Virus record (IMG/VR): IMGVR_UViG_3300045988_176782 | Location: 103,279-167,278 of that record | Length of the DNA: 64,000 nt | Source: a virus | Direction: 5' to 3' (one strand) | Shown: piece after piece, positions 8,146 to 49,711 of the stretch | Layout: every line of letters starts with the position of its first letter | Numbering within the stretch: the first letter of the stretch is position 1 | Notes under the pieces: generated by a model | What the model saw: the letters and a program-made list of their open reading frames with translations, nothing else | Databases searched by the model: none | Told to the model about the DNA's origin: nothing | Position numbers and translations under genes: made by a program

Positions 8146-9261
8146 ATGGGACAATGTTTAATTACACGTCGTGGTGGAAAGACATCTGTAAATACTGACT
8201 TGCCTGCTTTAGATAATAATTATCCTCAAGATGTTATAATTTGGGGAGGAGAAGCAAATGCTTCTTTTAAAGTTGTAATTAGTCGGGCCGGAACCGACAC
8301 AAATTATGCCTATCAATGGTTTAAGGATGGTGCAGTAGTTGGGACTGCTGCAACATATTCAGAAACGACACCTACTGATTATGGTTCTCACACTATACAA
8401 TGCGTTATAACTACCTCTTAGGGAATTATATCTTCTCGTATTGCCACTTATATTGTAAAGAATCCTAATTTCTTATATTCATACACTGGTAATATAACTA
8501 CCGGTTCCAATAATACCTTCTATCTTACTACAAGTGGCACCTTAAATATTGCTAATTATGGTAAAAATGAAGATGGAATGTTTGATATTTTTCTCCTTGG
8601 TGGCGGTGCAGGTGGAGCTGTTACTGGCCTTGGTGGTGGCGGTTATTATACTATTACTTCAAAGAAGAAATTAGAAAAAAACACTAATTATCAGTTTATC
8701 ATCGGTGCAGGCGGCGCGGCTGGTTCTTTAACTGCGGCAGGCGGTAATGGCGGCTCAACTACGACGACTATTAGCAATATTAATGAAGGAGCGGGCGGAA
8801 AAGCTGGCAACAGAGTTGACGCATATATTAGTTGTACTTGCCAAAGTCCTAATGGCACAGCGGGTAATATTTACGAATATAGATATGGTTATAATCAAGA
8901 TACAGGTGTTTATACTATTACAAATCGCAGTTCTGTAGGGAGCGGAAGTCGGACTTTAAATTTATTATACCCATTAAAACAAGTTTCTGCTTTATATAAC
9001 GGCTCAGCTATTAATGTTTATCTCGCTCCAAATAAAATTGCTTATTGGTGTTATATTACAGAGCAAAAGACCATTTCTAGTAATAATGCAACTGCTGGTG
9101 CGGGCGGTTCAATAACATATATATTTGGAAGTAACTCTAATCTTCAGGTTAGCGGTCCAGGCGTGTTTAACAGCAATGCTGCTTTACGTTATGGCTAGGG
9201 CGGTAATAATAATATTTTAGCAGGTAAGAATGGACTAGCCGCGATTAGGTTTAGTTCATAA
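8146..9261 (+). CDS. Ig-like plus glycine-rich-domain tail protein, two in-frame TAG (8419, 9196)
   Basis: ORFs 8146-8421 and 8578-9198 are in the same frame and continue to TAA 9259-61. The YQWFKDGAVVG...HTIQCVIT Ig-like unit, GGGAGG tracts and ...GLAAIRFSS end parallel the next gene. Confidence 0.65.
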
Positions 9262-9271
9262 GGAGTAAAAA

Positions 9272-10315
9272 ATGAGTTCTTGTTTATTAGTGCAAAGTCT
9301 TAAAGAAAAGAAAATCCCGCCTACTTTATCACCTTATCAGCCTGCTAATGCCACAGCTTGGCAAGGTGATTCGGCAACTTTTTGGGTAGAAATCGCCACT
9401 CCTGGTGTCCCTGCGGAATATACTTATCAATGGTACCGTGATGGAGCAAAATGGTCCGGAGCGACAAAAGCAAGCGTCAGTTGGAGTAGTGCATCTATTG
9501 GAGTGCATAGTATTTATTGTATAATATCTAATGCCGCTGGAGAAGTAACAAGTCGTACAGCCACATTGACGGTAAAGAACCCCAATATGACTTACACCTA
9601 CACTGGCGGCCATGAGAAGATCGACGACGGAAGCGGCAACTGGCGCATCAAGTTCAAAAGCAGCGGCACGTTGAAATTTACCAACCTTGGCAAGTGGGAC
9701 GGCAAGCTGGACGTGTTCTGCGTGGGTGGAGGTTGCGCAGGTGGTAGCGGCTACTGGGACGCAGGCAACGGCTACGGTAAAGCTGGTAGTGGTGGGTACA
9801 CCACAACCCAAAAAAGTGTCCAATCAGCCGCAAATGTCTCTTATAACATTGTTATCGGTGCAGGTGGACAAAGTGCCTTTGCGTCTGGTGGAAACACTAC
9901 CGCTTTTGGTGTGGCGGCTGGTGGCGGCACGAAGCTGGGAGGTGGCAGCGGCGGCGGCGCTTATGGTAACAGAGAAGTGAACAACGGCGGCTCGGACGGC
10001 GGCAATGGCGAACCGCAGAACGCCGCCAACATCGGCATTGACCATTGGGGTTCCCCCGGCAAGGGGCAGGGAACCACGACCCGCGAGTTCGGCGAATCCA
10101 CCGGCACCCTCTACGCGGGCGGCGGCGGTGCTGGCGGAAACGGCTCCGCACAGGCCCATGGCGGCGCTGGCGGTGGCGGAAATGGCGCGTGGAATGGGCA
10201 CCCACAAACAAGTGGCACGGAAAACACCGGTGGCGGTGGTGGTGGCATGTACTATGGCCTAACTGTCCTGGGCAAAGGTGGTAGTGGCATAGTCGTCATA
10301 CGTAATCACCGATAA
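9272..10315 (+). CDS. Ig-like plus glycine-rich-domain tail protein (paralogue of 8146-9261) with a GC-rich C-terminal half
   Basis: YTYQWYRDGAKW...IYCIISNAAGEVTSRTATLTV followed by GGGxGG tracts ending GSGIVVIRNHR. Intact ORF. Confidence 0.75.
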   Translation: MSSCLLVQSLKEKKIPPTLSPYQPANATAWQGDSATFWVEIATPGVPAEYTYQWYRDGAKWSGATKASVSWSSASIGVHSIYCIISNAAGEVTSRTATLTVKNPNMTYTYTGGHEKIDDGSGNWRIKFKSSGTLKFTNLGKWDGKLDVFCVGGGCAGGSGYWDAGNGYGKAGSGGYTTTQKSVQSAANVSYNIVIGAGGQSAFASGGNTTAFGVAAGGGTKLGGGSGGGAYGNREVNNGGSDGGNGEPQNAANIGIDHWGSPGKGQGTTTREFGESTGTLYAGGGGAGGNGSAQAHGGAGGGGNGAWNGHPQTSGTENTGGGGGGMYYGLTVLGKGGSGIVVIRNHR

Positions 10316-11207: not shown

Positions 11208-13403
11208 ATGGCAAAACAACTTAACGCTCGTGTTCAAACTAAACGAGACACAGAACAAAATTGGAATTAGGCAATTAACTTTATTCCTAAAGATGGCGAA
11301 ATTATTATTTATAAAGCTGATACAACCGCGGAAGAGCTTCAAACTTTTTATGAAGCATATTTGGCGGAAGTTGAAGCACTAAAATTAATTACCAATACTT
11401 CCTCAACCGAATATCAAGAACAATCTGTAAAAGTTTCTGAAGCTCTCGCCACCTATAATAATCGCTCTACACGAATTGTGCCGCGTTTTAAAGTAGGAAA
11501 TGGAGAAAAATATTTAAAAGATTTACCTTTTGTAAATGACCCATTTGTAATTAAGGAAGAAGGTAAAGGTCTTTCTGAATGTGATTATGATAAGCGTGCT
11601 CACGATATTATTGAGAACTTAAAGCAATTTGAAGATAATAATACCGGTGAAGTTTAGTATACTGACACAAAATATACTAACGGCGTCGGATTGGGGCTAT
11701 TAGAGGATACAATTCCTTCAACTTCTCAAACCCATACTTTCTACAATACTGGTATTGTTTCTATTCAAGAAAGCGCCATTAATGGTAACATTTCTGTAGC
11801 TCGTGGTAATTCCAGCACCGATACCACTGTAAGTGATATTGCAATTCACGGTTTAACTCAAACTGCTTATACTTTACCTGAAACTTTTGCTACAGCAAAA
11901 GCGGGCGAGCGCGCAATGACGGCATTGCAAAATGTCGCTACTCCTTTTGAACCAGTAAGCGTAAAAGATTTAACAATTCAAAAGTTGTTTGATTTAGGTT
12001 TCTTAAATACATCTTCTATTCCTGATTCTGCCGCATATTTACTTTCAGACGAAGGAAAAGCTAAAAAAATAGAAGAAATTCCAAGCTCCGAAAACGGTAG
12101 TATAAGTTATTTAATTTTTCTTGGCCTTTATCCATATGATGTCGCCGCACAAACAATGCTTCGTGGTACAGTTAATTTACAAAAAATGGATGAGGATGAC
12201 AATCTAATTAACCTCTATGCGCCTGTAATTGGATTGGGCAAAATGGCTTATATTGATGAAGTTAATGCTTCCAATATTAACTTGGATACTTTGCCTATTA
12301 TGACAGGTGTTAGGAAAGTTGAAACTACTGATGAAGATGGCAACATTACCGAAACAACTTATCTTTCTGGGCATAAAGGTTTGGTTCCGACTCCAACAGA
12401 AAACGATTATGGCAAAGTTCTATTTAGCGATGGCTCTTGGCGACCAATTACAGATATTGCGATTAACATTGGTGATATTCCTTCTGGTTTAGCAACCGAT
12501 AATGAAGGTAAAATTTATAATAATGGTATATTAAATTTAAGTAGTGAAGAAAATATTATAAACTTTACTCAACTTCAATTAGATGAAGCTACTCAAAAAT
12601 ATCAATTAGTTTCCTATCAACTTGAAATTCCCGCAGCGGTATCTTGGACTTCAACACTTACGAGTGGAGAACAAATTGGCACTTTAACTATTAATAACGC
12701 TGAAAATATTTTATATGCTCCGGTTGCATCCGACAGAGTGGCAAAAGCAGGAGATACAATGACCGGACGATTAATTTCTCCTGCGATAGAAATTCGCAAA
12801 GACGCTTGGCCATAGCTTCTATTAAGCAATGCTTCAGGTGGTCCTCGTGGAATGATGTATGTAGCAACCAGTGATGGTAGTGTGGGTAATTTATATCTTA
12901 GAGCATATTCTTCTGACACAGAATATTCTCAAGCTTATTTAACAACTTCTGGAACTTTTTCCGCACCAAGTGTTGAAGGCGCAGTCTTTAACGATTACGC
13001 AGAATACCGTGCTTTAAAAGACCCAATTGAATCCTACGAACCAGGTTATTGTATGACCTGCAATAGAGATGGAAAACTTTTCCGCACTTCTTCTCGTATG
13101 CAACATTGTGAAGGCATTACCTCTGATACTTTTGGTTTCTCTATTGGCCGCACAGATGAAGCTACTGTTCCTCTTGCAGTTGCAGGTCGCGTACTAGTAT
13201 ATACTTCTGAAGACCCCTCTACTTACTATACTGGTCAAGCTGTTTGTGCTAGTAGGGGTGGCCGCGTTTCTAAAATGACAGATTCTGAAATTGCTCAAAA
13301 TCCTGACCGTATTGTTGGAATAGTAAGTGAAGTTCCTACATATGAAACTTGGGGAACAAATAATGTTAAAGTTAATGGTAGAATTTGGATTACAGTAAAA
13401 TAA
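11208..13403 (+). CDS. tail spike/fibre with Mtd_N-type N-terminus and Peptidase_G2-like C-terminal autoprocessing/chaperone domain; three in-frame TAG (11268, 11655, 12813)
   Basis: ORFs 11361-11657, 11691-12815 and 12852-13403 are all in the frame of ATG 11208. The C-terminus FNDYAEYRAL...TVPLAVAGRVLVYT...GQAVCAS...IVGIVSEVP is like the phi29 pre-neck appendage C-terminal domain. Confidence 0.7.
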
Positions 13404-13452
13404 ATTTGCCTATAAACAAAAATTATTGTAAAATAATTTTGGAGGATGAAAT

Positions 13453-14910
13453 ATGAAACAAGTAAATATTATTGTAAAGTCTTCTGTGCAAGAATAGGAA
13501 AAATTTATTGGAACTTATCCAGAAAAAAACCTATTAACAATTGATGCAGAAGGACAAATTATTCAAGATGATGTAATTACTCACGGTATAAAAATTGGTG
13601 ATGGCGAAACCAAATGGGATGATTTACCTTTCTTGAAGTTGCCGCCTGATATAGCGAATGATTGGAAAGTTTTAGCAGAAAGCGCGACCAATGGCCAACT
13701 TGTGACCTTACCTGATTTGAATTTTGCATATTTATTAATTGACGCAGAAAAACTAGATAACGCACAGTATACTGAAATTGTAAATCAAATTGCTTCTCGT
13801 AATATTGGTTTATATTTAGCCGCGGCAGAATCAGAAAAATCATTATACCCTGATGGAAGTCAAATTCAAAATTATGCTCTCACAATCAACACAGACGAAG
13901 ATAAACCATTCATAACTCAAGACCCAAATGGTGCAACTGCCACAAATAGTATAGTAGATAGGTTTATTTTTAATACTTCAAATGAATCCAAGTATAATAA
14001 AATTGAAGTGAAATTAAAAGATAGTGAAGCGCAAGAAAAAATTGAACAGCTTAAAGCTACGGTAGATGATAAATTTACTACTTTTTCTGAGCAAACTAAA
14101 AAAGATATTGAACAAGTAAAAAAAGATATTAAAGAATCCACCTATATTTTTGGTAGCAATAACATCCCCGAAGGAACCACAAGTGGCCTAATTCCTTTTC
14201 CTGAAGTAGAAAAACGAACAAAAGATTACTTCCTTTCTGGCGCAGGGACTTGGGAACAAATCATTCTTACCGCTGATAAAGTAAAATACACCACTCCGAC
14301 TGGTAGCCAAACATATGTTAAAGATGTGTTAGATGATTTATTGAGCGGTGCTAGTCTAAGTTTTGCTCAAGGTAGCGCGACAGACCGTCAGGTATTTATT
14401 GTTGGCGCGACACAAGAAGGTTTGAATAATAAAAAAACTACATTAAAATATAGTCCAAGTGTGTATCTTGACTGTAAGGATAATGTACTATATGGCGGCG
14501 CTTGGAATGATATTGCTGAATTTAGGGAGTCTTTTGATTCTTATGTGGCAGGAAACTGTGTATATGAAACTGCACGAGGCAAATTGATGATTTCTGATAA
14601 GCGTATGATTCCAAATAGTTATATTGTATCTGACACTTATGGTTATGCTTTGGGTGAGAAAGATATTGATACAGTTCCTGTTACTATTGCCGGTAGAGTT
14701 TTGGCTTATTATTTAGAAGATAAAAATGAACTAAAAATTGGTGATGCTGTATGCAGCGGTCCAAATGGTGCAGTTTGTAAGATGAAGAAATGGGAAAAAA
14801 TTTTACATCCTGAATGTATTATTGGCTATGTAAGTGAAATTCCTCAATATGAGATTTGGGGCCAACATAATACTTCTGTGCGCAATCGTATTTGGATTAA
14901 GGTGAAGTAA
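13453..14910 (+). CDS. second tail spike/fibre with Peptidase_G2-like C-terminal domain; one in-frame TAG (13495)
   Basis: GGAGG RBS and ATG 13453, same frame as ORF 13633-14910. The C-terminus WNDIAEFRES...TVPVTIAGRVLAYY...GDAVCSGPNG...IIGYVSEIP is paralogous to 11208-13403. Confidence 0.7.
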
Positions 14911-14911: not shown

Positions 14912-15604
14912 ATGGTAGAAAAAATTACAGCTTCTTGGTTTAATAGAATTATTGATGCCATTAAGCGTTTAAAGAATTTAGGATTTGCTTTTTCTACAGA
15001 AGGAGTCCCAAATAAAATTACCATAAATTCAGATGGCACAACAGGAAAACTTTATACTCCTTCTGACTTTAGTGCGATTAATGCAATAATTCAACGAATG
15101 TCAACAGATGAATACTTACAGCAAACAAATAACGCTTCTTATCCTGCACAACAAATTTATTATAATACTGTTTCTGTCGGTAAGCGTGGGCAAAGACCGT
15201 TATTAGATTGGAAAAATCAATTAGATAGAACGGTTGATTCTTGGCAATATATTACTTGCTATCACGGAACTGCAAAAACGAATGGTGTAAATAGCGTTGC
15301 GTGCCAGCATGGGGCGAATAGTAATGGTGATAATACGAATGGTTATTGCCAAAGAGGATTAACTCCTTGTGACCATGGAACTAATCATGTTTGTAATACT
15401 AATTATAGTAGTCAAGGTAATAAAGGTTGGCATACTAAAACTTGCTCCAACGCCACCGTAAAAGATGGAAAAGGCAGCAACACCAATGGTATGTATTCCC
15501 CTAACGGCACAAATAGTAACGGTACTTTTGCTAACACTTGTCCTCACGGAGATTGTCAGCAAGGTATCGATATTAACATTCGTTATAAAACAACACAAGG
15601 ATAA
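14912..15604 (+). CDS. tail-fibre-associated protein with Cys/His/Asn/Gly-rich C-terminal region (candidate radical-SAM substrate)
   Basis: N-terminus KITASWFNRIIDAIKRLKN. C-terminus has 8 Cys in CxHG-type motifs (CYHG, CQHG, CQRG, CDHG, CPHGDCQQG) amid N/G/S/T. Lies directly upstream of two rSAM genes. Confidence 0.6.
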   Translation: MVEKITASWFNRIIDAIKRLKNLGFAFSTEGVPNKITINSDGTTGKLYTPSDFSAINAIIQRMSTDEYLQQTNNASYPAQQIYYNTVSVGKRGQRPLLDWKNQLDRTVDSWQYITCYHGTAKTNGVNSVACQHGANSNGDNTNGYCQRGLTPCDHGTNHVCNTNYSSQGNKGWHTKTCSNATVKDGKGSNTNGMYSPNGTNSNGTFANTCPHGDCQQGIDINIRYKTTQG

Positions 15605-15613
15605 AAGAAAAGA

Positions 15614-16954
15614 ATGAATAAAAATTTAAAGCATACTGTCTTAACTTTATTTCCTTCCGCAGTTTGTAATTTAAACTGTACATACTGCAACATTAGTAAA
15701 AATAAGGCTCTAATTGAAATTGATAAAGAATTGAAAGATTTCTTTAACGACCCAGATTATATAATGCAACGAGTGCATAAGTATTTTGAACCTTGTGCTC
15801 TTACCACATTAGAAACCTGGGGCGGCGAACCTTTTCTCCATATGGATAGAATATATAAGGTATTGCCGCGACTTGTGGAAGATTATCCATATTTACAGAA
15901 TTTCTTCAGTTCTACAAATTTTTCTTTTTCTACTTGGATAGAACAATTTTTTGGCCTGATGCACCAATTTAAGCAATGGCCAGACCGTCAATTTAATTAC
16001 AAACTCCAAATTTCTTGTGATGGCCCAACTGAATTAAACGATTTGGGGCGCGGAAAAGGCACAACTTTAAAGTGCTTGGAAAATTATGCCAGATTGGTTG
16101 AGTCTTTAGAAAAGAGATTGCCTGCTAATATCAATCTTTCTATTGTTCCTAAGCCTACTTTAAATTTAGAAACAGTTCGTTTATTAAATACAAAAGAAAA
16201 AATTATAGAATATTACCAATTCTTTGAAGATTGTTTTATTAATTTAGTTAATAAGTTGGAATTTAATAATGTTCAAGCTTACACAAACACTCCGAATATG
16301 GGCGTTCCTTGTCCAGCAACAAAAGAGGACGGGTTATATTTTGCTAAGTTTGCGAAAAATTGTGCAGAAGTAAGCAAACACGCAAAGAAATACTTCAAAT
16401 ATTATACTAATGTGCGACCTTTTTCCATATATCAAAAACAAACGAAAAACCTAACTTTCTATCAATCCTGTATTGGTTGTGGTATGGGATATTCTAATAT
16501 TGGACTTTTGCCGCAAGACAAAATTTCAGTATGTAATGAAGGATTTGTTCAAACTGTAAAACAATATAATGAACTACGCTCTCAAGAGCAAGAAAGCGGC
16601 ACAATTGAAAAGAAAACTCGTCAATCAAAAAATCAACATCATCTATGCTATAGTGATGATGAATATGAGAAGTTTGAAGAACAAATGTGTAATTTCTGTT
16701 ATACTGCAAATACATCAGTTTTGGTTGGTTTATGCAATCAAATCACTCTTTTGGCTTTAAGCGGCCAGATTGATAAACAATATATACAGCAATCTAATGC
16801 TCTTCACGCCGCACAAGTTTTAGCAGGAGAATACTTTTGTTTAAAAGATAATTATGACATTACAGGATCTTTTTCTCTTGTTCCTGTAGGGTTAATTCGT
16901 TTATTATTAAATGGTGCTTTGCCATATTTGGAGAATAATGATGAAAACATTTAA
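15614..16954 (+). CDS. radical SAM protein (peptide/protein maturase-like)
   Basis: CNLNCTYC (CxxxCxxC) near the N-terminus; additional C-terminal Cys cluster SCIGCGMG...VCNEG...CNFC. Confidence 0.8.
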   Translation: MNKNLKHTVLTLFPSAVCNLNCTYCNISKNKALIEIDKELKDFFNDPDYIMQRVHKYFEPCALTTLETWGGEPFLHMDRIYKVLPRLVEDYPYLQNFFSSTNFSFSTWIEQFFGLMHQFKQWPDRQFNYKLQISCDGPTELNDLGRGKGTTLKCLENYARLVESLEKRLPANINLSIVPKPTLNLETVRLLNTKEKIIEYYQFFEDCFINLVNKLEFNNVQAYTNTPNMGVPCPATKEDGLYFAKFAKNCAEVSKHAKKYFKYYTNVRPFSIYQKQTKNLTFYQSCIGCGMGYSNIGLLPQDKISVCNEGFVQTVKQYNELRSQEQESGTIEKKTRQSKNQHHLCYSDDEYEKFEEQMCNFCYTANTSVLVGLCNQITLLALSGQIDKQYIQQSNALHAAQVLAGEYFCLKDNYDITGSFSLVPVGLIRLLLNGALPYLENNDENI

Positions 16955-18338
16955 AGAAGAAAATAACGATTTTTTAAAGTTTTTGTTAAATGAAAGGTTT
17001 TTTAAGAATTGGAAGAAACCTTCAAATAATGGCAAAGACTTACATTCTATTTCTCAAATTGAGTTTTATATTACTAACCAGTGTAATCAACATTGTGAGT
17101 ATTGTTATTTATATAATAATTACAATATCTATCCAAAAGAAGCCACAGAAGCAAAAACAATTCTTAATAATCTAACTATGGTTTTTAATTGGCTTATTGA
17201 AAATAATTATTATATTCAAACTATTGATTATTTTTCTGGCGAAATTTGGCATACTCAATTAGGATTGGACATTTTGGATTTGACCTTTAAAGCTTTACAA
17301 AATGGTTTGCAAGTTAAACGAATAATGATTCCTACAAATGGCTCATTTATTATGAATGATGCGGTTAAACAGAAAATTCAAAACTATATCAATGCTTTCC
17401 AAGACCTTGGGACAAGTCTTCAACTGTCTTTTTCCATTGATGGTAAAGTAATTGACAACTTGAATCGTCCACGTAATGACAGTTCTAAATTATATACTGA
17501 CGAATTTTATAATAAAGTATTTGATTTTGCTTATCATAATGATTTTTTCTTCCATCCAATGGTTGCTGCTTATTCTATTGAAAAATGGAAAGAAAACTTC
17601 TATTGGTGGAAAGAAATGTGCCAAAAATATAATTGGTCAACTCATTATCGTGTAATGATGTTGGAAGTGCGCAATGATGACTGGACGGAAGAAAAGATTA
17701 AAACTTATTGTGATTTTCTTACATTTTTAATGGATGATTTTAGAGAAGAAAATCCTCAATATGCTTCAATAGAAAATTTTTCTGAATTTATCTTTGGTAA
17801 ATATATAACACTAGAAGAAAACTATACTTACCTTCCTTGGGTACTTGCGCTAACTTCCGATGTTTTTTCTTGTACAATACCGTGTCAATTATGTATTCGT
17901 TTAGGCGATTTAGCTTTGGCACCTTGCCATAGAACAGCATACGATAAATTTATCTATGGCTATTTTCAAACTCAAAATGGTCGCATCGTAGACATTAAGG
18001 AAAATAATTTTTATCTTGCTGAACGATTTCTTTATATGAGCAATATTTACGCTACTCCTCATTGCGATACTTGTGTGTATAATAAGTTCTGTATAAAGGG
18101 ATGCGCAGGTTCACAGTATGAAAATACTGGAGATTTATTCTTCCCTATTCCCTCTGTATGCAAATTAGAAAAAGCAAAAATTAATACAGCAATTAACTAT
18201 TATCAAAAGAATGGCATAATTGATTACTACAAAAATCTTCCTATTGACCATTTTATGTATTCAAGTGCCTCAAGACTTTTAGGAGAAATTTATGCTATTC
18301 AAAAAGAAACCGAAACTTATTCAATCTCTAACTCTTGA
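16938..18338 (+). CDS. radical SAM/SPASM-domain protein
   Basis: CNQHCEYC motif. C-terminal CTIPCQLC...APCHR...HCDTCVYNKFCIKGCAG is SPASM-like. GGAGA RBS before ATG 16938. Confidence 0.85.
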   Translation: MMKTFKEENNDFLKFLLNERFFKNWKKPSNNGKDLHSISQIEFYITNQCNQHCEYCYLYNNYNIYPKEATEAKTILNNLTMVFNWLIENNYYIQTIDYFSGEIWHTQLGLDILDLTFKALQNGLQVKRIMIPTNGSFIMNDAVKQKIQNYINAFQDLGTSLQLSFSIDGKVIDNLNRPRNDSSKLYTDEFYNKVFDFAYHNDFFFHPMVAAYSIEKWKENFYWWKEMCQKYNWSTHYRVMMLEVRNDDWTEEKIKTYCDFLTFLMDDFREENPQYASIENFSEFIFGKYITLEENYTYLPWVLALTSDVFSCTIPCQLCIRLGDLALAPCHRTAYDKFIYGYFQTQNGRIVDIKENNFYLAERFLYMSNIYATPHCDTCVYNKFCIKGCAGSQYENTGDLFFPIPSVCKLEKAKINTAINYYQKNGIIDYYKNLPIDHFMYSSASRLLGEIYAIQKETETYSISNS

Positions 18339-18531
18339 ACAATCTTGTCAAGGACAATTAACTACTACGGCGGAAAAAGTAGATATATATAGTGATGATA
18401 CTGTTGTTCGTTATTATACATATTCTATTCGTCATTTTGATAATATTGATGGCATTACGCCGCTTAATTATGTAGGACAAAAAATTTATAATCAGTTAAC
18501 TGGGTATAAAGAGGAATTGACGAATTCCTAA
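18292..18531 (+). CDS. hypothetical small protein overlapping the end of the rSAM gene
   Basis: AGGAGA RBS before ATG 18292; 79 aa; last ORF before the operon terminator. Confidence 0.35.
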   Translation: MLFKKKPKLIQSLTLEQSCQGQLTTTAEKVDIYSDDTVVRYYTYSIRHFDNIDGITPLNYVGQKIYNQLTGYKEELTNS

Positions 18532-18692
18532 AATCAAAATAGATGAGACGATATTATAGCAGTTAAGTTTATTATCCAATTCACGGGAAAGCGCTTAACA
18601 GTCGCAGAAGAAAAAATAAAACTTCTCTTCTAGTGTCGGCTCAATTGATTTATCTACGGCGATTTTAACAGGTGGTAATTCCATTACGAATT

Positions 18693-18723
18693 AAGAGGAC
18701 AATTTTGTCCTCTTATTTTTTTT
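18693..18723 (+). terminator. intrinsic terminator ending the structural/rSAM operon
   Basis: AAGAGGAC/GTCCTCTT hairpin plus a T-run. Confidence 0.8.
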
Positions 18724-18749
18724 ACAAAAAAGAAAATTTCGTGTATAAT
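18721..18749 (+). promoter_or_regulatory. promoter TTTACA-N17-TATAAT
   Basis: -35 at 18721-26, -10 at 18744-49. Confidence 0.6.
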
Positions 18750-18776: not shown

Positions 18777-19091
18777 ATGAGACAAAAACATATAATTGAA
18801 TTAGAACACGAAGATTTTCAATATTTATTAGAACATTGCGCAGAAAAGCTCTGGATATCTAAATCAAATAAAACATATTATCTTGTTATTCGCGGCTCTG
18901 AGCTGTGTCCGCATTGTCATCAAAGGACAGGTTATGGTGTTGTAGGAGAATATAATAAAATTGTTTGTCCGCAATGTGGTTTTGAGAGAACATTAATTGT
19001 ATTAGATGATGGGAATGCAAACGTAAATTTAGACCACATAAAGGCAAGTTCTTTGCTTATTTTCAAAGACAAAGGAGTACGTCATGAATGA
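18777..19091 (+). CDS. zinc-ribbon protein
   Basis: CPHC...CPQC; AAGGAG RBS; N-terminus ELEHEDFQYLLEHC is paralogous to the next gene. Confidence 0.55.
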   Translation: MRQKHIIELEHEDFQYLLEHCAEKLWISKSNKTYYLVIRGSELCPHCHQRTGYGVVGEYNKIVCPQCGFERTLIVLDDGNANVNLDHIKASSLLIFKDKGVRHE

Positions 19092-19539
19092 TTACCATAT
19101 TACATTAAAACACGAAGATTTTATGTATCTTCTTAAACATTGTACTTATCATCCAAAAGACAACTTGCAGCCTATAGTCGTCCTTGATAGTAATATTTGT
19201 CCAAATTGTGGGACTGAAGATGCCTGGCATTATGATAATAAGTCATTAACTGTCTCTTGCGCTTCTTGTGGGCATAACCGTACTAATATGTATCTTTCTG
19301 GAAGTGCGGTTCCCAGTAAAGAGGGCGGTGGCGGTGAAGTTGGATGGATGATTCCATCGGTAATTTTTCTTGATGAAAACGATGAAAAATATTTTAAGAA
19401 AATTTGTAAAAAAGCACGAAGGGAAGTATTTGTATGGAAAATCAAAAACCAACCCTCATTGTTATGGTCGGAGTTCCGGGAAGTGGTAAAGATTACCAAA
19501 TTGAAAATAGTGAATTTCTTTACGCAGATGGAGAAGTAA
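19084..19539 (+). CDS. zinc-ribbon protein (paralogue of 18777-19091)
   Basis: TLKHEDFMYLLKHC, CPNC...CASC. Confidence 0.5.
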   Translation: MNDYHITLKHEDFMYLLKHCTYHPKDNLQPIVVLDSNICPNCGTEDAWHYDNKSLTVSCASCGHNRTNMYLSGSAVPSKEGGGGEVGWMIPSVIFLDENDEKYFKKICKKARREVFVWKIKNQPSLLWSEFREVVKITKLKIVNFFTQMEK

Positions 19540-19967
19540 AAAGAGAGGTCATAAGTCGCGACCTCGTGCGGTATGGGATGGTAAGGGAAGATGAAGAATA
19601 TTTTTGTCGTGAAAAGGAAGTTTTTGAACAATATATTCTTCAAATTTCTAATGCTCTTTCAAATAATAAAATTGTAATTGCAAATGCCACTCAAGCTAAT
19701 TATGGTAGCCGCAAAAAGCTTCTCCACGCTGTTGATGAAAAGTTTGGTCGCGATTACAATATTGTTATGTATTGTATTATTTGCGATTATGAAACTGCAG
19801 ACCGTCGTAATAAGCAACGTGAAGGTAGAGCTGTTGTACCAAGCAAGGCTATGATGGAAATGTTTAATAATTTTTCTGTGCCAAATCTTAAAGAAGATGA
19901 TAGGATTGAAAAAATTATCATTGAATGTTATGGTGCGTGTAGCATTATGCGGCGACAGAAAATTTAA
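19434..19967 (+). CDS. P-loop kinase-like protein (polynucleotide-kinase-like candidate)
   Basis: TLIVMVGVPGSGKD Walker-A-like motif; about 177 aa; directly upstream of a metallophosphoesterase. Confidence 0.55.
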   Translation: MENQKPTLIVMVGVPGSGKDYQIENSEFLYADGEVKREVISRDLVRYGMVREDEEYFCREKEVFEQYILQISNALSNNKIVIANATQANYGSRKKLLHAVDEKFGRDYNIVMYCIICDYETADRRNKQREGRAVVPSKAMMEMFNNFSVPNLKEDDRIEKIIIECYGACSIMRRQKI

Positions 19968-19985
19968 GGAAAGGAGAAAGAAGAT

Positions 19986-20777
19986 ATGAATCAAGTGTAT
20001 TTTTCCTCGGATTTTCATCTGGGGCATTTGCGCGAATTTCTGTTTAAGCCTCGTGGTTTTTCTTGTATCGAAGAACACGACCGCAATATTATTGCAAATA
20101 TCAATAAGGTTGTCGCAGAAGACGATATTCTTTATATTCTTGGCGACCTTATGTTAAACGATAACGACAAGGGAATAGAATATCTAAAGCAAATTAAATG
20201 CCAAGATGTCCGTGTTGTGCTTGGCAATCACGATACGGATAATCGTAAGACTTTGTATGAATCGCTTCCTAACTTTACTATTCTTGGTTATGCTCATCCA
20301 TTTAAATATAAGAAGTGGCGTTTTATGCTTTCTCATTATCCAATGGCTACAGCAAATTATGATGATGATGAAAAGCCTTATTTGAAGGTGCATAATATTT
20401 GCGGCCATAGCCATACCAAGAATCGCTTTGACGATAAGACTGGCTCTTATCATGTGGAGTTGGATGCGCACGAAAATTTCCCTGTGAGTATTGATGAAAT
20501 TATTTCTGATATTAAAAATCGTAAAGAAATTCAAAAAGTAGATACAATTATCCCTTACGAATGTTATACTACACACGAACACAGCCCTTTCCGTTTTGAT
20601 GGTAATTGTCCTCATTGTGGCCAGCCACTTATGATTAATAGATTAAATCTACACGATATGGAAGTATGCCTTGACTCTTATAAGGGATATTCTTATCGTT
20701 TTAATGGACATTTTGTATGTGAAAATTGCGGAAAAGAAGTTAATGAATTTCAAACTTATTGGGGTGAGTTAAAGTGA
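19986..20777 (+). CDS. calcineurin-type metallophosphoesterase with C-terminal zinc ribbon
   Basis: SDFHLGH, LGDLMLND, LGNHD and GHSH motifs; CPHCG...CENCG. Confidence 0.8.
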   Translation: MNQVYFSSDFHLGHLREFLFKPRGFSCIEEHDRNIIANINKVVAEDDILYILGDLMLNDNDKGIEYLKQIKCQDVRVVLGNHDTDNRKTLYESLPNFTILGYAHPFKYKKWRFMLSHYPMATANYDDDEKPYLKVHNICGHSHTKNRFDDKTGSYHVELDAHENFPVSIDEIISDIKNRKEIQKVDTIIPYECYTTHEHSPFRFDGNCPHCGQPLMINRLNLHDMEVCLDSYKGYSYRFNGHFVCENCGKEVNEFQTYWGELK

Positions 20778-29441: not shown

Positions 29442-30575
29442 ATGAAGCGTTTTCAGGCAGTAATAGATTGCGGTTTTGGTGACGCAGGAAAAGGCTTAGT
29501 TTCTCGTTGGCTTGCAAAGCAAGCATTTGAGCGTAAAGAAAAAACTTTAACTGTATTTTTTAGTGGCGGTTGCCAACGCGCCCATACCACTATTGAAGGC
29601 GTTTTTCATACTTTACCTGCTGGGTTATTTTTTGACAGTGATATTCTATATAGCGAAATGTTTGTCATTGACCCTATCGCTATTTATTTAGAATATGAAA
29701 GTTGGAAGCAAAGTTTCGGGCCATTTATTGAACCAAAACTTTATGTAAGCCCACATTGTCGTGTGGTTACTCCTTTTGATGTCTGGAATAATCGTCTAAA
29801 AGAAACTCGTCGTGGCGCGCAAAAACATGGCAGTTGCGGTATGGGCATTTTTGAAACCGTATTTAGAGATAAGAGTTTATTTGAATTAAAAGCCAGAGAC
29901 CTTTCCAACCCTTGGAAACTTTGGGAACAACTAAAGAAAATTGAAGAACTTTATAGCAATTCTTGCAGTGATATGGTCTATAATGCCCACAACTTTATGA
30001 AGGCCGCGGAATGGTTTACTAAAAATGTAGAGCAATTTGAAACATATGAAGTATTAAAAAAATATGATACCATTATTTTTGAAGGAAGCCAAGGTTTGTT
30101 GCTTTCTCAAACTAATGTGGATTTCTTTCCATACTTAACTCCTGCCTCTACCGGTGTTGATAATATTGAACATTGGTTCAATTTAGGCGCGGCGGAAGAA
30201 AAAGAAATCTACTATGTTTCTCGCTCTTATATGACACGACACGGTGCTGGGCCTTTTCCAACAGAATGTAAGAAGAAAGATATTAATCCCACAATTGTTG
30301 ATTCTACTAATATTCCTAATAAATGGCAAAATAATTTGCGTTTTGGATACTATGATGTAAAACTTATTGGTGATGCTATTGTTAAGGATACTTGTAGAAT
30401 TACGAACAATAAGGTAAAATTTAATATGGTATTTACGCAACTTAACTATACTAATGGCAAAGTAAGATGCGGCAAGAATGACGATTTGGATATTAATAAT
30501 GATTTATTTTTCTTTCTCAATTTTGACCATCTATATGGTTCTTGGGATAAAGAAAATGTAGAAAGGATTATGTAA
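29442..30575 (+). CDS. adenylosuccinate-synthetase-family enzyme, short phage type (PurZ-like candidate)
   Basis: GFGDAGKGLV (cf. PurA GDEGKGK), GSCGMGIFET..RDK (cf. GIGPAY.DK), EGSQGLLLS (cf. EGAQG.LLD), YMTRHGAGPFPTE (cf. TRVG.GPFPTE). 377 aa, shorter than cellular PurA. Confidence 0.7.
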   Translation: MKRFQAVIDCGFGDAGKGLVSRWLAKQAFERKEKTLTVFFSGGCQRAHTTIEGVFHTLPAGLFFDSDILYSEMFVIDPIAIYLEYESWKQSFGPFIEPKLYVSPHCRVVTPFDVWNNRLKETRRGAQKHGSCGMGIFETVFRDKSLFELKARDLSNPWKLWEQLKKIEELYSNSCSDMVYNAHNFMKAAEWFTKNVEQFETYEVLKKYDTIIFEGSQGLLLSQTNVDFFPYLTPASTGVDNIEHWFNLGAAEEKEIYYVSRSYMTRHGAGPFPTECKKKDINPTIVDSTNIPNKWQNNLRFGYYDVKLIGDAIVKDTCRITNNKVKFNMVFTQLNYTNGKVRCGKNDDLDINNDLFFFLNFDHLYGSWDKENVERIM

Positions 30576-39463: not shown

Positions 39464-39553
39464 TGGCCCTTAGTTGAATGGTGACAACAGCTGACTCTAA
39501 ATCAGTAAGTGGGGTTGACCCCGCAGGTCTTGGTTCGAATCCAAGAGGGCTAA
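39464..39553 (+). tRNA. suppressor tRNA, anticodon CUA (reads UAG), class II (long variable arm), no encoded CCA
   Basis: Acceptor TGGCCCT/AGGGCTA (U1-A72, G2-U71). D stem GTTG/CAAC. Anticodon stem GCTGA/TCAGT with loop CT-CTA-AA (CTA 39497-99). 22-nt variable region with GGGG-TTGA-CCCC hairpin. T arm CTTGG-TTCGAAT-CCAAG. Discriminator A. Confidence 0.8.
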
Positions 39554-42236: not shown

Positions 42237-43565
42237 ATGTCTGAACATGTAGGTTATGTTGTAAAAATTAATTCATTGCGGCCTCATTCTAATGCTGACC
42301 GTCTTCAAATTGCTACTATTTTTGACTCTAATGTTATTGTTAGTCTTGATACCCATCTTGATGACATTGGCGTGTATTTTCCTTCTGATATTCAGCTCTC
42401 TAAGGAATTTTGTAAAGTAAATGACCTTGTTCGTCGTAAAGATGAAAATGGCAATCCTGCAGGTGGCTATCTTGACCCAAATAAGCGTAATATTCGTCCG
42501 TTGAAGTTGCGCGGTGAAAAAAGTGATGGTCTATATCTGCCCATTACTTGTATGATGGAGTTCTGTCCTATTTCTGACCTTAAGGTTGGCGACACTATTG
42601 GTGTTGTAAATGGGCACGAAATTTGTAAGAAGTATATTCCCCATCGCACGAAGGCATACCATTATACTGAAAAAGTAAGGAAGCAAAAGGTTAATTTTGC
42701 TCCTACCTTTTTTGAGCATTGCGATACCGCTCAACTTGCATACAACCTTGAAGCTTTCCGTGCAGGAGATGTTGTAGAGCTAACTCTTAAAATGCACGGG
42801 ACCAGTGCGAGAATGGGCTATCTGCCTTTGCTGCAACCTCGGACTTTGCTAGATAAAATTCTTCGTCGCACTCGCAAAACTTATGGAAATGTTATTGGCA
42901 CTCGCCGCGTTGTATTGGATGAAACTCATACTGGTGGTTTTTATGAGGACAATGCTTTCCGACGCCATATTGCTAAAAAGGTTGAAGGAAAACTCCATCG
43001 TGGAGAAACTATTTATGGAGAAATTGTAGGCTTTCAAGGTCCCAATGGCGCGCCTATTATGTCTTCTGTGAAAAACTCTAAAATTTCCGATAAAGCATTC
43101 ACGAAGCAATATGGTGAAGAAACTGTATTCTCTTATGATTGTAATGCTGCGAATGGTTATGAAGATGAACATCCTTGTTGTGAATTATATGTTTATCGTA
43201 TGACTATGGTAAATGATGACGGCGATGTGGTAGATTACTCTCCTGCGCAAATCCGTTATCGTTGTGAGCAAATGGGAGTTAAAGTTGTTCCTCAATTTGA
43301 AGTATTCGTAATTCCTCAAGATGAACCCCATCCTGGTGAATATGTAGTACGTAAAGTTGAAGAATACTATGACGGTCCTGACCCTATTGGTAAAACCCAT
43401 GTACGCGAAGGCGTTGTTGCTCGTATTTTGAATCGGAATAATTTTGCGGTTTATAAAATGAAGAATTGGAACTTCAAATGCCTTGAGGGTATTGTTAAGG
43501 ATGAAGCGGCAGAACCAGATATGGAAGAAGCGCAAGAAGAACTAGTGGAGGAGCAAACTGAATGA
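42237..43565 (+). CDS. RNA ligase with N-terminal OB/tRNA-binding-like domain (Rnl5-like architecture)
   Basis: N-terminus VVKINSLRPHSNADRLQIATI (tRNA_bind-like). Nucleotidyl-transferase motif I LKMHGTS (KxHG). Confidence 0.65.
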   Translation: MSEHVGYVVKINSLRPHSNADRLQIATIFDSNVIVSLDTHLDDIGVYFPSDIQLSKEFCKVNDLVRRKDENGNPAGGYLDPNKRNIRPLKLRGEKSDGLYLPITCMMEFCPISDLKVGDTIGVVNGHEICKKYIPHRTKAYHYTEKVRKQKVNFAPTFFEHCDTAQLAYNLEAFRAGDVVELTLKMHGTSARMGYLPLLQPRTLLDKILRRTRKTYGNVIGTRRVVLDETHTGGFYEDNAFRRHIAKKVEGKLHRGETIYGEIVGFQGPNGAPIMSSVKNSKISDKAFTKQYGEETVFSYDCNAANGYEDEHPCCELYVYRMTMVNDDGDVVDYSPAQIRYRCEQMGVKVVPQFEVFVIPQDEPHPGEYVVRKVEEYYDGPDPIGKTHVREGVVARILNRNNFAVYKMKNWNFKCLEGIVKDEAAEPDMEEAQEELVEEQTE

Positions 43566-47950: not shown

Positions 47951-48024
47951 AGGCGAATAAGATAATGGTAGTCCCGCGCTCTCCAAAAGCGTTCGTCCCT
48001 GTTCAAATCGGGGTTCGCCTGCCA
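47951..48024 (+). tRNA. tRNA-Trp (CCA anticodon), CCA end encoded
   Basis: Acceptor AGGCGAA/TTCGCCT. Anticodon stem GCGCT/AGCGT, loop CT-CCA-AA. T arm CCCTG-TTCAAAT-CGGGG. Confidence 0.75.
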
Positions 48025-48029
48025 AAATA

Positions 48030-48108
48030 AAGACGCATACAGCTAATATTTTGGTTAAAAAGTTTTCTACAAAAAAGCTTAAGAGATTCAATTTCTCAAT
48101 GCGTCTTG
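48030..48108 (+). repeat. AAGAC..GTCTT element copy (E4)
   Basis: AAGACGC-ATACAGCTAAT...GCGTCTT-G-TTTTT. Confidence 0.6.
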
Positions 48109-48115
48109 TTTTTAT

Positions 48116-48190
48116 GGCTCGTTAGCCTAGTGGTTTAGGCAGTAGACTGTTAATCTACCTAGGCTGGTTCAATTCCAGCACGAGCCTCCA
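48116..48190 (+). tRNA. tRNA-Asn (GTT)
   Basis: Acceptor GGCTCGT/ACGAGCC. D arm GCCT..AGGC. Loop CT-GTT-AA. T arm GCTGG-TTCAATT-CCAGC. CCA encoded. Confidence 0.85.
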
Positions 48191-48412
48191 TTAATTCAAT
48201 AATACGCGTGAGGCCGCGGTGCATATTGGCAAGAACAAGTATCATGAACTCAGCGCCCGAAGGAGAGGTAAATATCGGTTAACTACCGAGGCGCACCTAT
48301 GTGATGAATTGGACCCTTTCAAGTTGAAAGACACCTACGAGGGAGACGACGGAATAATTGGCCGCCTTTAAACGCTTGTCCATGAAAATGGCACTATTAT
48401 TGAATATTTAAA
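48191..48412 (+). ncRNA. structured RNA of about 220 nt closed by an 11-bp helix
   Basis: ATTCAATAATA (48194-204) pairs with TATTATTGAAT (48395-405). The interior is visibly GC-richer than the genome, with several complementary segments. No ORF. Confidence 0.45.
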
Positions 48413-48624
48413 AAACTCTGTCCTCAACGTGGATCGGAAAGTAATTTGCCTATTATTATAGGTAAGTCCACGACCTGATAATAGGTAAATTATGAAGTTT
48501 GTAACAGTGTTCTTCAAAATAACTTCTGAACAGCGGCATAAGAGCCACGCCAGAGGAGCGGATTGGTGTGAAAGATAGAGAGTTGCAATTATCTATTTAT
48601 TCACAGGCCATAAAGAAGTTATAT

Positions 48625-48740
48625 GCCAAGGTAGCTTAATTGGTAGAGCAATAGAGTAAAAAGGAATCTTGTAAAAGATTTTGGCCGCGATTGTTTATAT
48701 TTGGGTCTGTGTGTTCTCGGTTCAAGTCCGAGCCTTGGCT
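48625..48740 (+). ncRNA. tRNA-like gene with a 43-nt insertion in the anticodon loop
   Basis: Canonical acceptor GCCAAGG/CCTTGGC, D arm GCTT-AATTGGTA-GAGC, anticodon stem ATAGA/TCTGT, 5-nt variable region and T arm CTCGG-TTCAAGT-CCGAG. The loop is 50 nt and contains the hairpin AATCTT-GTAA-AAGATT. The 3' loop part ATTTGGG would give anticodon TTG. Confidence 0.45.
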
Positions 48741-48747
48741 TTACCAT

Positions 48748-48824
48748 TGCGGAGTAGAGAAGTGGTTTATCTCGTCAGCCTCATGAGCTGAAAAACGGAG
48801 GTTCAAATCCTCCCTCCGCAACCA
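48748..48824 (+). tRNA. tRNA with CAT anticodon (Met or Ile2)
   Basis: Acceptor TGCGGAG/CTCCGCA. Stem TCAGC/GCTGA, loop CT-CAT-GA. T arm GGAGG-TTCAAAT-CCTCC. CCA encoded. Confidence 0.8.
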
Positions 48825-48892
48825 ATAGAACTTTGAAAAACTTTATCCTTTGCCAAGTTTACCATAAAGAGGGTTTAAAGGCGAGGTCATGA

Positions 48893-48967
48893 TGCTCAAT
48901 AGCTTAACGGTAGAGCAGCGATTTCATAAGTCGTTAGATATAGGTTCAAATCCTATTTGAGCAACCA
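48893..48967 (+). tRNA. second tRNA with CAT anticodon (Met/fMet/Ile2)
   Basis: Acceptor TGCTCAA/TTGAGCA. D arm GCTT..GAGC. Loop TT-CAT-AA. T arm ATAGG-TTCAAAT-CCTAT. CCA encoded. Confidence 0.8.
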
Positions 48968-49093
48968 AGCGCTACACAGATTCCCACTAAACTACCACTG
49001 GCGTCTCAGACCCAATAGGAGAGCGGCGATATGTAGCTTGCGGAAGCGCTATATAAGAAGCGAAGTAAGTGGTGGGCGGTTTACCGCCCGATA

Positions 49094-49167
49094 TGCGGGT
49101 GTAGCTCAATGGTAGAATTCTAGCCTTCCAAGCTGGTTACGTGGGTTCGATTCCCATTACTCGCTCC
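49094..49167 (+). tRNA. tRNA-Gly (TCC)
   Basis: Acceptor GCGGGTG/TACTCGC. Stem CTAGC/GCTGG, loop CT-TCC-AA. T arm GTGGG-TTCGATT-CCCAT. CCA encoded. Confidence 0.8.
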
Positions 49168-49506: not shown

Positions 49507-49511
49507 TAGTA

Positions 49512-49611: not shown

Positions 49612-49617
49612 TTTTTT

Positions 49618-49708: not shown

Positions 49709-49711
49709 TAT

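Follow-up and report, generated by a model that had tools for sequence, protein, structure and literature searches.

The 64,000-nucleotide (nt) stretch of viral DNA analysed here (IMG/VR record IMGVR_UViG_3300045988_176782, positions 103,279 to 167,278; hereafter the window) carries at 14912-18531, on the plus strand, four consecutive open reading frames (ORFs) that encode a 230-amino-acid (aa) protein, two radical S-adenosylmethionine (SAM) enzymes, designated rSAM-1 and rSAM-2, and a 79-aa protein. With moderate confidence, we interpret this region as a self-contained maturation cassette, similar to those that produce RiPPs (peptides made by ribosomes and modified after translation), in a large gut-Clostridia phage that recodes the TAG codon. 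The 230-aa protein is very probably the substrate of the enzyme pair, as suggested by the conserved gene order and by the co-variation of its N-terminal domain with the enzymes. Our statements on function draw on sequence, structure prediction and synteny, from which we infer the occurrence of the modification, its chemistry and its biological role. Radical-SAM maturation of ribosomal peptides is a bacterial route to antibiotics and cofactors and is essentially unexplored in viruses. The cassette looks like a widespread, phage-borne and previously undescribed variant of this type of maturation that acts on protein-sized, hypervariable substrates, and literature searches found no description of a substrate arranged with paired radical-SAM enzymes in this way.

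Related loci were collected from viral contigs and, for prokaryotes, from a single genome of each species, with rSAM-1 patterns as the only query. ORFs were called both with TAG as a stop and with TAG read through, profiles were used to score them, and rSAM-1 was collapsed at 90 % identity, the only step by which kinship among viral contigs and contigs of metagenome-assembled genomes (MAGs) was handled, giving 40 clusters (individual loci are labelled L001 and so on). In L008, L061 and L065, which have a higher GC content and in which TAG is a true stop, read-through fused the substrate with rSAM-1, and these loci were treated by hand. The search spaces behind the E-values of our own hidden Markov model (HMM) searches were very small.

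In 39 of the 40 non-redundant loci, rSAM-2 was located directly downstream of rSAM-1 on the same strand, the exception being a truncated 3.2-kb contig. A protein matching the profile of the ~115-aa N-terminal domain (N-domain) lay directly upstream of rSAM-1 in 31 loci; four loci instead had D/S/Y-rich proteins, single or as a tandem pair, whose N-terminus is related but shorter, and no substrate was detectable upstream in the other five, at least one of which (L062) is cut by the contig end at that point. A small ORF at the 3' end of rSAM-2 was seen 47 times across the loci. The order of substrate, rSAM-1, rSAM-2 and small ORF recurs far beyond chance. At E < 1e-5, rSAM-1 and rSAM-2 have 380 and 479 homologous 90 %-identity clusters, respectively, at 40-50 % identity over their full length; these come from public metagenomes, nearly all from gut-Firmicutes contigs of phage size, and bear generic 'AslB' or 'radical SAM' labels. 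The viral contigs that carry related loci measure ~90-200 kb, and many are TAG-recoded; other loci are on contigs of phage size assigned to MAGs of Oscillospiraceae, Faecalibacterium, Lachnospiraceae, Roseburia and Clostridium, and two were found in isolate genomes. Related cassettes are present in Oscillospiraceae isolate B35_35_AM_H (L060/L061) and in Clostridiales Family XIII PM5-7 (L080). Some phages have extra radical-SAM copies or two full cassettes per genome (L015 3319-4605, L028 172-1569); contig IMGVR_UViG_3300045988_177309, for example, bears both L014 and L028.

The substrates share an anatomy consisting of an N-domain that ends in '..v.C(R)N', a repeat-rich core and, often, a 'T.IDI.N....' tail. 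Comparison of L003 with L016 gave 54 % identity for rSAM-1, 45 % for rSAM-2 and 54 % for the N-domain, and 21 % for the core. An N-domain that co-varies with the enzymes next to cores that cannot be aligned is the signature expected of leader-directed modification. The cores differ widely: that of L003 has ~40 copies of GSWSQSV, with a Trp every seven residues; those of L006, L008 and L061 consist of NSNGT pentads; L009 carries CxxxC arrays followed by HTHGTNSNACNNSSHS repeats; and L016, L017 and L031 are built on CSNSAHSNT, FFNGVNYTYFATHCSNYC and FNSSNYGYN, respectively. Among 27 non-redundant cores of 31-354 aa, with the boundary fixed at residue 120, Ser, Asn, Gly and Thr together account for a mean of 57 % (range 38-73 %), Ser being the commonest residue (mean 20 %), and aromatic residues plus His for 5-32 %. 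The number of Cys per core ranges from 0 to 43, with four cores having two or fewer and L003 having 3 in 317 residues. A second substrate class, usually encoded by two tandem genes (L020 4941-5980, L024 5101-5995, L074 5086-6007, L022 9943-11087), accompanies the same enzyme pair and is strongly acidic, with an Asp/Ser/Tyr-rich core (SYDSSYDSGYD) and a short N-terminus of the form 'IRASHFNEIKDN..DY.DDMNYC'.

Several loci contain additional genes. Directly upstream of the substrate, L009 (2716-4635), L010 (3410-5200) and L016 (3147-4952) encode a YcaO protein of ~600 aa (PF02624, E 1.7e-30; TIGR00702, 106.8 bits, above its cutoff of 75.65), which implies additional chemistry, of the backbone or the azoline type, on Cys/Ser/Thr-rich cores. 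A GT2 glycosyltransferase is encoded in L007, L018 and other loci, and paired ~290-aa proteins (F1 family) in many, with a weak Peptidase_U32 match (23.6 bits), the sole protease-related one, in one of the four scanned. The window holds the minimal four-gene version of the cassette and no YcaO gene.

The probable substrate and the enzyme pair

The substrate gene of the window (14912-15604, plus strand, standard code) comprises three parts. Residues 1-115 (14912-15256) form the conserved, leader-like N-domain, which ends at an ITC116 boundary and for which a low-confidence AlphaFold2 (AF2) model predicts helices at residues 7-22, 50-73 and 96-105. Residues 116-217 (15257-15562) constitute a variable polar core arranged in xNG/SNG units with eight Cys, and residues 218-230 with the stop codon (15563-15604) encode a conserved C-terminal tail, G-IDINIRYKTTQG, the counterpart of the 'T.IDI.N' tail that many relatives in the family carry. 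An N-domain profile built from 16 other loci, with the window protein excluded, recovered the window protein at 18.5 bits, with E 1e-7 in a single comparison; with the window protein included, the full profile scored it at 87 bits. As the initial annotation had described, the eight Cys lie mostly in CxHG (C116, C131, C153, C210) and CxxG (C146, C215) contexts, all of them within residues 116-215. Among 12 homologues, including one at 49 % identity, four of these Cys are invariant and three more are kept in 11 of the 12. The core also contains two NxxC motifs, NGYC and NHVC.

The core is the part that varies. Among close homologues the N-domain is 92 % identical, against a mean of 65 % in residues 146-180, the most variable stretch, where two alternative 'alleles' occur. 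The ratio of nonsynonymous to synonymous substitutions (dN/dS) of the low-complexity core alone, relative to L005 (a 168-kb contig, 94 % identical), was 0.10. L001 is more distant: identity to it is 49 % for the substrate, versus 72-77 % for both upstream fibre genes and the start of rSAM-1, and the substrate dN is 0.40, versus 0.14-0.18 for its neighbours. The substrate evolves two to three times faster than the neighbouring genes, with no signal of positive selection. The substrate gene has no DNA tandem repeats, and we saw no sign of a tandem-repeat DNA mechanism or one of the diversity-generating retroelement type behind the core variability, although no search for a reverse transcriptase was made.

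The substrate has only 16 homologous 90 %-identity clusters, an exhaustive search with the family profile yielded only six representatives at 50 % identity, and the cluster of the 230-aa protein itself has 247 member sequences on contigs of up to 172 kb. The subfamily to which the window substrate belongs is narrow, and the wider family is visible solely through synteny and the hand-built N-domain profile. No fibre, tail or other domain was detected in the substrate with Pfam or PHROG, and NCBIfam gave no tail match. tblastn found no match to it in 50,697 phage records, and nucleotide and protein searches of GenBank phages returned no homologue of the region, the substrate or rSAM-1.

rSAM-1 (446 aa, 15614-16954, plus strand) has the CX3CX2C motif CNLNCTYC at residues 18-25. 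rSAM-2 (16941-18338, plus strand) most likely starts at 16941, as in its homologues and according to gene callers, giving 465 aa (475 aa if from 16911, to which the ORF is open), and carries CNQHCEYC at residues 48-55 in the 465-aa numbering. The motif is invariant in a 20-sequence alignment of each enzyme. The two show no significant pairwise similarity, which rules out recent paralogues.

For rSAM-1, the Pfam matches to PF04055 (26.5 bits, gathering cutoff 29.5) and PF13353 Fer4_12 (21.7 bits) both fall just below the cutoffs, and the protein matches PHROG 1802 'radical SAM' (E 1.8e-13). Beyond the SAM cluster, the only Cys invariant among the 20 sequences are C289-x17-C307 and C409, so that its auxiliary region appears reduced and SPASM/twitch-like and the SPASM pattern is present only in part; the C-terminal domain is helical. 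The AF2 model of rSAM-1 (predicted local distance difference test score, pLDDT, 85) shows a beta/alpha radical-SAM core. Its nearest Foldseek neighbours are anSME (E 2.8e-9), CteB, ChlB, TigE and EpeE, and the best TM-scores (0.55-0.64) were obtained with ChlB bound to the leader of its precursor. SpeY, lysine aminomutase and MoaA trail in this ranking with E above 1e-3, and QueE-type enzymes are absent from the PDB fold matches. A profile search of PDB sequences with rSAM-1 returned the radical-SAM domain of ChlB as the sole match (E 2.7e-4). Uncharacterised SPASM-type enzymes are encoded by other phages too: the BFVD matches, at 12-19 % identity, belong to phages of Campylobacter, Erwinia and Vibrio.

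For rSAM-2, the PF04055 match reaches 17.8 bits, under the gathering cutoff of 29.5, and the TIGR04085 SPASM match 20.5 bits against a cutoff of 27, with C-terminal matches also to the SCIFF and QhpD models. Invariant Cys at C311, C329, C375-x2-C378-x5-C384-x3-C388 and C407 (20 sequences, 465-aa numbering) indicate a full seven-Cys SPASM enzyme with two putative auxiliary-cluster motifs, which bears out the initial annotation. The profile search of PDB sequences with rSAM-2 recovered only the SPASM region of CteB (E 4e-6).

The HMM classification that the initial annotation had proposed as a check placed neither enzyme in a cofactor or nucleotide family. The best NCBIfam matches of both are sub-threshold (12-31 bits against cutoffs of 180-855) and are almost all maturases of RiPPs or proteins: PapB, geopeptide, DynA, GrrM/OscB, YhhB, XyeB, nif11, SCIFF, QhpD and HxsB. 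rSAM-2 also gives a weak match to the nif11-peptide maturase model (29 bits). Both enzymes group with peptide- or protein-modifying SPASM enzymes, not with QueE or NrdG.

The 79-aa ORF (18292-18531, plus strand) was recovered by a profile of the 12 small ORFs that form the largest group of such genes, from which it had been excluded (25.7 bits, E 2.5e-8 within the set searched), and is a short member of its family. A jackhmmer search started from the 79-aa ORF returned only the L005 orthologue.

Operon context and genetic code

All four ORFs were confirmed in the standard code, in the order reported by the initial annotation. The substrate ATG lies 1 nt past the TAA stop of the upstream gene, rSAM-1 starts 9 nt past the substrate stop, the 5' end of rSAM-2 overlaps the 3' end of rSAM-1 by 14 nt, and the 79-aa ORF overlaps the end of rSAM-2 by 47 nt. 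The Shine-Dalgarno sequence of the substrate gene, AGGTGA (14900-14905, plus strand), is located in the last codons of the upstream gene; together with the 1-nt spacer, it points to translational coupling of the substrate to that gene. A terminator-like hairpin with a 10-bp GC-containing stem and a T-run (18692-18715, plus strand), in line with the terminator noted initially, and, just after it, a near-consensus promoter TTTACA-17-TATAAT (18721-18749, plus strand) mark the end of the operon. Relative to L005, dN/dS was 0.10 for the substrate, 0.04 for rSAM-1, 0.04 for rSAM-2 and 0.15 for the 79-aa ORF. Purifying selection acts on all four genes, and the four ORFs are therefore real, constrained genes.

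The operon begins with two genes that had been annotated as tail spikes. Fibre gene 1 (11208-13403, plus strand, 731 aa) appears in the standard code as three ORFs in one frame, split solely by TAG, and its N-terminal motif resembles, by eye, that of the ORF at 1728-2987, which matches tail-fibre PHROGs. Fibre gene 2 (13453-14910, plus strand, 485 aa) contains one in-frame TAG. The two share a C-terminal domain of ~170 aa (12852-13403 and 14398-14910; motifs NDxAE, SDTxG and VPxAxxGRV) that matches the C-terminus of the phi29 pre-neck appendage protein gp12 (6qz9/3suc/3gqh, E 9e-5), a region that we take to be the auto-chaperone of gp12. Because of this match, we regard both as tail-spike or fibre genes, as first proposed. 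The domain has no Pfam model and matches only one PHROG family of unknown function (for two of five domain members), and PHROG profiles alone did not reveal the upstream genes as tail spikes.

The setting of the cassette, placed by the initial annotation at the end of a tail-fibre operon, varies among loci. Two tail-spike genes of the gp12-like kind precede it in both the window and L001. The gp12-like C-terminal domain is also found in the gene immediately 5' of the substrate in L020, L074 and L075 (4439-4930, 4594-5082 and 4984-5487, respectively); loci with this upstream domain include some on contigs of an Omnitrophota MAG and a Woesearchaeota MAG. Small fibre-like proteins are encoded upstream of the cassette in L008, L061, L065 and L072, and a tape-measure gene with a 480-aa protein in L024. 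Genes of the tail-fibre type adjoin the cassette in at least four unrelated lineages, and the association of cassette and tail genes is recurrent, not obligatory.

A suppressor tRNA with a CTA anticodon (39464-39553, 90 nt, labelled Pyl by ARAGORN) is encoded in the window, and in-frame TAG codons occur within the fibre genes (11208-14910) and a second maturation locus (51387-53239). Since these genes are broken solely by in-frame TAG and a matching tRNA is present, the phage translates TAG as sense. Recoding of TAG in gut phages is already documented (PMC9523058). In-frame TAG, present in the neighbouring late fibre genes, is missing from all four cassette genes, and their boundaries are therefore unaffected by recoding.

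Proposed chemistry and role

We propose that the ~115-aa helical N-domain serves as a leader-like recognition element and that the ~100-aa polar core, rich in Cys, His, Asn, Gly, Ser and Thr, is the part modified, with the 79-aa protein possibly acting as a chaperone or recognition factor. Each enzyme would generate a 5'-deoxyadenosyl radical and so remove hydrogen from residues at many positions along the core. Intramolecular cross-links in the core would be the likeliest result, either C-C links of the cyclophane type from aromatic residues or His or, in the window member, C-S thioethers from Cys; oxidation or epimerisation of backbone or beta carbons would be the alternative. In this way a floppy polar sequence could become a rigid, protease-resistant structure. 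All three options are compatible with the data. Cyclophane-type links fit the closest fold, ChlB, and the aromatic residues or His present in every core; thioethers fit the Cys-bearing members, with the SPASM region of rSAM-2 resembling those of CteB, the SCIFF maturases and QhpD; and Ser/Cys oxidation or epimerisation fits anSME and EpeE, which stand near the top of the structural ranking, and Ser as the commonest core residue.

Co-transcription and translational coupling join the cassette to the tail spikes in this phage, and its product would therefore be made late, together with the host-recognition apparatus. Our best guess at its role is an accessory protein that is associated with the virion or interacts with the host surface. 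Since tail adjacency is not universal, as the L019-type, L003 and YcaO loci illustrate, we put forward a virion-associated role tentatively, as a possibility that falls somewhat short of probable. We use the wording 'RiPP-like' because no protease or transporter family accompanies the cassette, and cores of 31-354 aa with a conserved tail suggest an intact protein product.

Several findings weigh against the favoured interpretation of the region. L019-type phages carry the cassette after NrdD, dUTPase and RuvC genes, the L003 cassette lies amid small ORFs of no known kind, and the YcaO-containing loci have no tail genes within the flanks analysed. Neither enzyme reaches the cutoff of any curated HMM, and no leader protease, exporter or immunity gene was found in any locus examined. 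Cores of up to ~350 aa far exceed classical RiPPs. The only features common to the cores are Ser/Asn/Gly/Thr richness and at least 5 % aromatic residues plus His, from which a common chemistry cannot be read. Finally, the AF2 model of the substrate, made from a 12-sequence alignment, is uninformative (pLDDT 40), with three helices and a disordered core, and was kept out of the fold search because it would have given meaningless matches.

Among the alternatives, the one that survives best is that the product is a non-structural, RiPP-like effector that is set free at lysis or works within the cell, for example a bacteriocin, a toxin aimed at competitors, a signal, a metal binder or an anti-defence decoy, with its position next to the tail spikes being an incidental insertion at the operon end. 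The leader-like domain, the hypervariable core and the YcaO, GT2 and U32-like genes do resemble natural-product clusters; the cassette behaves as a mobile module in varied neighbourhoods; the phage has a second, unrelated RiPP-type locus far from its tail genes; and the cassette, having no in-frame TAG, could be translated before the suppressor tRNA acts. However, the missing protease, transporter and immunity genes count against an effector as well, the length of the cores and the conserved C-terminal tail argue for an intact protein, and the recurrence of tail-fibre-type neighbours in unrelated lineages and the tight coupling to fibre gene 2 weigh against it too. We therefore hold this explanation to be doubtful, if the most serious of the competitors.

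The initial annotation had viewed the 230-aa protein as fibre-like and of the receptor-binding type, with SPASM enzymes forming Cys-to-Asn/Asp/Thr thioethers of the ranthipeptide or QhpC type; such cross-links would stiffen the tail tip. The conserved core Cys, their CxHG/CxxG contexts and the two NxxC motifs are consistent with such a model, as are the translational coupling to the tail spikes and the SPASM region of rSAM-2, which is most similar to those of the thioether formers CteB/SCIFF, QhpD and PapB. Yet the substrate shows no recognisable domain of a fibre or tail protein, and homologous cassettes occur outside tail modules, among NrdD, dUTPase and RuvC genes or beside YcaO genes, so the fibre-like label is not supported. 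Moreover, the same enzyme pair stands beside cores with 0-3 Cys (L031, L027, L030, L011, L003), and thioether-maturase HMMs score 24-28 bits against cutoffs of 340-453. Because the pair is kept whether or not the core contains Cys, thioether formation cannot be the reaction that defines the family. As the main modification in the window member they are conceivable and, in our estimate, unlikely; the complete model of a thioether-stiffened fibre is less likely again, and we consider it improbable.

Large phages commonly carry radical-SAM genes of the QueE or NrdG type, and the enzymes might accordingly be thought to serve nucleotide, cofactor or DNA-modification metabolism in a QueE-, NrdG-, MoaA- or viperin-like manner, next to an unmodified structural or zinc-binding Cys-rich protein; prokaryotic viperin is the best single NCBIfam match of rSAM-2 (31 bits against a cutoff of 180, restricted to the generic N-terminal radical-SAM core), MoaA and QueE are matched at E 0.02-0.1 and a QueE-annotated entry stands low in the BFVD list, but viperins have no SPASM domain, in contrast to the invariant seven-Cys SPASM of rSAM-2, the fold search puts protein and peptide maturases far above MoaA and lysine aminomutase, and the near-obligate three-gene synteny and the leader-enzyme co-variation would be left unexplained, so that this explanation is very improbable and already largely refuted by the HMM, SPASM, fold and synteny data. 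The viperin, MoaA and QueE readings were each rejected on cutoffs, the SPASM motif and the fold ranking.

Returning to the RiPP-like cassette that we favour, a bolder extension is that large gut-Clostridia phages carry a so far unrecognised 'mega-RiPP' class, in which a conserved N-terminal handle recruits the obligate radical-SAM pair and the hypervariable, repeat-rich core is cross-linked into a rigid module and displayed with the tail spikes as an interchangeable element that binds host or mucus. We regard this as speculative and rather unlikely. If it were true, radical chemistry, not protein folding, would generate diversity in viral receptor binding. The cassette could reveal a new route by which phages, in a gut that is anoxic and rich in proteases, build surface or effector proteins that are both stable and variable, and its long-repeat substrates could yield new cross-linking chemistry for peptide and protein engineering.

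Other loci of the window and known systems

The window contains a second radical-SAM maturation locus, of the CXXX-repeat type. It comprises a TIGR04116-like companion (51114-51386), a 434-aa maturase with five or six in-frame TAGs (51387-52691; TIGR04115, 330 bits, with the match continuous across the TAGs) and a 186-aa precursor with ~20 CxxxC repeats (52679-53239). The presence of two different radical-SAM peptide-maturation loci in one phage is notable. The initial annotation had counted them as two independent loci of one kind; the locus at 51114-53239 instead belongs to a different, already curated family. It lies within the tRNA region, beside a DUF2828/DUF7788 (TROVE-like) gene (54067-55575), and is flanked by 12 tRNA genes (47951-50684 and 53477-53550: Trp, Asn, two Met, Gly, Glu, Ser, Ala, two Leu, Pro and Thr).

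Several other genes of the window were recorded. Just after the cassette terminator are paralogous zinc-ribbon proteins (18777-19091 and 19084-19539; HEDFxYLLxHC ... CPxC ... CxxCG), with an AAA_33 kinase and a metallophosphoesterase nearby and an RNA ligase further on (19434-20777, 42237-43565); these genes may form an RNA-repair set. The GC-rich patch of the tail region encodes two glycine-rich proteins (8578-9198 and 9272-10315; PF21722 Gly_rich_2), the second with an Ig-like N-terminus. A short adenylosuccinate-synthetase homologue of 377 aa is encoded at 29442-30575 (PF00709, 113 bits); phage PurA-like proteins of ~377 aa can be PurZ, the maker of 2-aminoadenine (Z) DNA. A transporter of the xanthine/uracil permease family (59259-60512; PF00860, 175 bits) is adjoined by a protein in which nucleoside 2-deoxyribosyltransferase and GIY-YIG nuclease domains are fused (57989-59236).

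Set against known systems, the cassette fits none of the curated families tested. Both enzymes belong to the radical-SAM superfamily by their invariant CX3CX2C motif, and the rSAM-1 model fits the TIM-barrel core. A precursor with a leader and a variable core beside the enzymes, as in RiPP loci, is present (synteny in 35-39 of the 40 loci); a leader protease and the export of a small peptide are not represented among the recurrent neighbours.

The proteusins (NHLP/Nif11 leaders; polytheonamide, landornamide) have an unusually long, structured leader of ~80-100 aa, a polar Asn/Gly/Thr core and radical-SAM enzymes that act at many sites (PMC10858898). In contrast, no NHLP or Nif11 leader was found in the cassette family, either in seven divergent N-domains searched with E values as high as 10 admitted or in the full protein. 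The cassette enzymes are SPASM-type, not PoyD-type, and the cassette is phage-borne, with cores that are much longer and repetitive.

anSME/AslB is the top structural match of rSAM-1, and its name is given to some family members by the source databases. It oxidises Ser or Cys side chains of a folded protein substrate, and Ser is the commonest residue in the cassette cores. The recognition motif of anSME is (C/S)-x-(P/A)-x-R. This motif was not seen in the cassette cores, no sulfatase gene lies nearby, and rSAM-1 is only 14-16 % identical to anSME and has lost most SPASM Cys.

Ranthipeptide/SCIFF and QhpC systems (CteB, PapB, QhpD) likewise place a SPASM-type radical-SAM enzyme beside a Cys-containing substrate, and QhpD acts on a protein-sized substrate, as proposed for the window cassette. 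The window enzymes nevertheless score far below these families, at 27.3 and 23.7 bits against 340 with the PapB model and 28 against 425 with SCIFF, or ~6 % of the ranthipeptide-type cutoffs, and at 27.8 against 453 with QhpD (TIGR03906), where the match covers the C-terminal region only and no qhp genes occur in the neighbourhood. A SCIFF precursor is a ~45-aa six-Cys peptide, whereas the cassette substrates combine a 115-aa N-domain with a repeat core of 100-350 aa. The cassette also differs in always pairing two different radical-SAM enzymes, in having many cores without Cys and in being phage-borne.

The CXXX-repeat system (TIGR04114-04117) also combines an N-terminal region of ~110 aa and a repetitive core with a SPASM maturase and a ~90-aa companion, and CxxxC arrays occur in the L009 core of the cassette family. 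The two nevertheless differ in enzyme number, the CXXX maturase being a single enzyme that scores 330 bits with TIGR04115, a model absent from the matches of the cassette enzymes. The gene order is companion, enzyme, precursor in the one and substrate, rSAM-1, rSAM-2, small ORF in the other, and the core of the 230-aa protein has no CxxxC array. The initial annotation had noted a likeness between the N-termini of the two substrates. Part of this stood, in that the CXXX precursor and the N-domain family share a short '(K)ITA.DF..IK.KV' helix motif; the similarity is marginal (9-21 bits, hhalign probability 37 %) and does not establish homology, the CXXX precursors, from two close loci only, being too uniform for a profile.

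The triceptide enzymes (ChlB, XyeB, GrrM/OscB, YhhB) are SPASM radical-SAM enzymes that install many identical cross-links on repetitive aromatic-x-x precursors, ChlB being a multiple-cyclophane synthase of this class (PMC12912966, with references 51 and 52 therein). Every core of the cassette family has at least 5 % aromatic residues plus His, often periodic, and ChlB gives the best TM-score to rSAM-1. The window enzymes score 12-20 bits with the triceptide HMMs (TIGR04496, TIGR04261, NF041707) against cutoffs of 310-450, and aromatic-x-x units are abundant in many cassette cores and sparse in those of the NSNGT type. In contrast to the triceptides, the cassette has no leader protease, and its precursors of 150-470 aa are accompanied by an obligatory second enzyme and a small protein.

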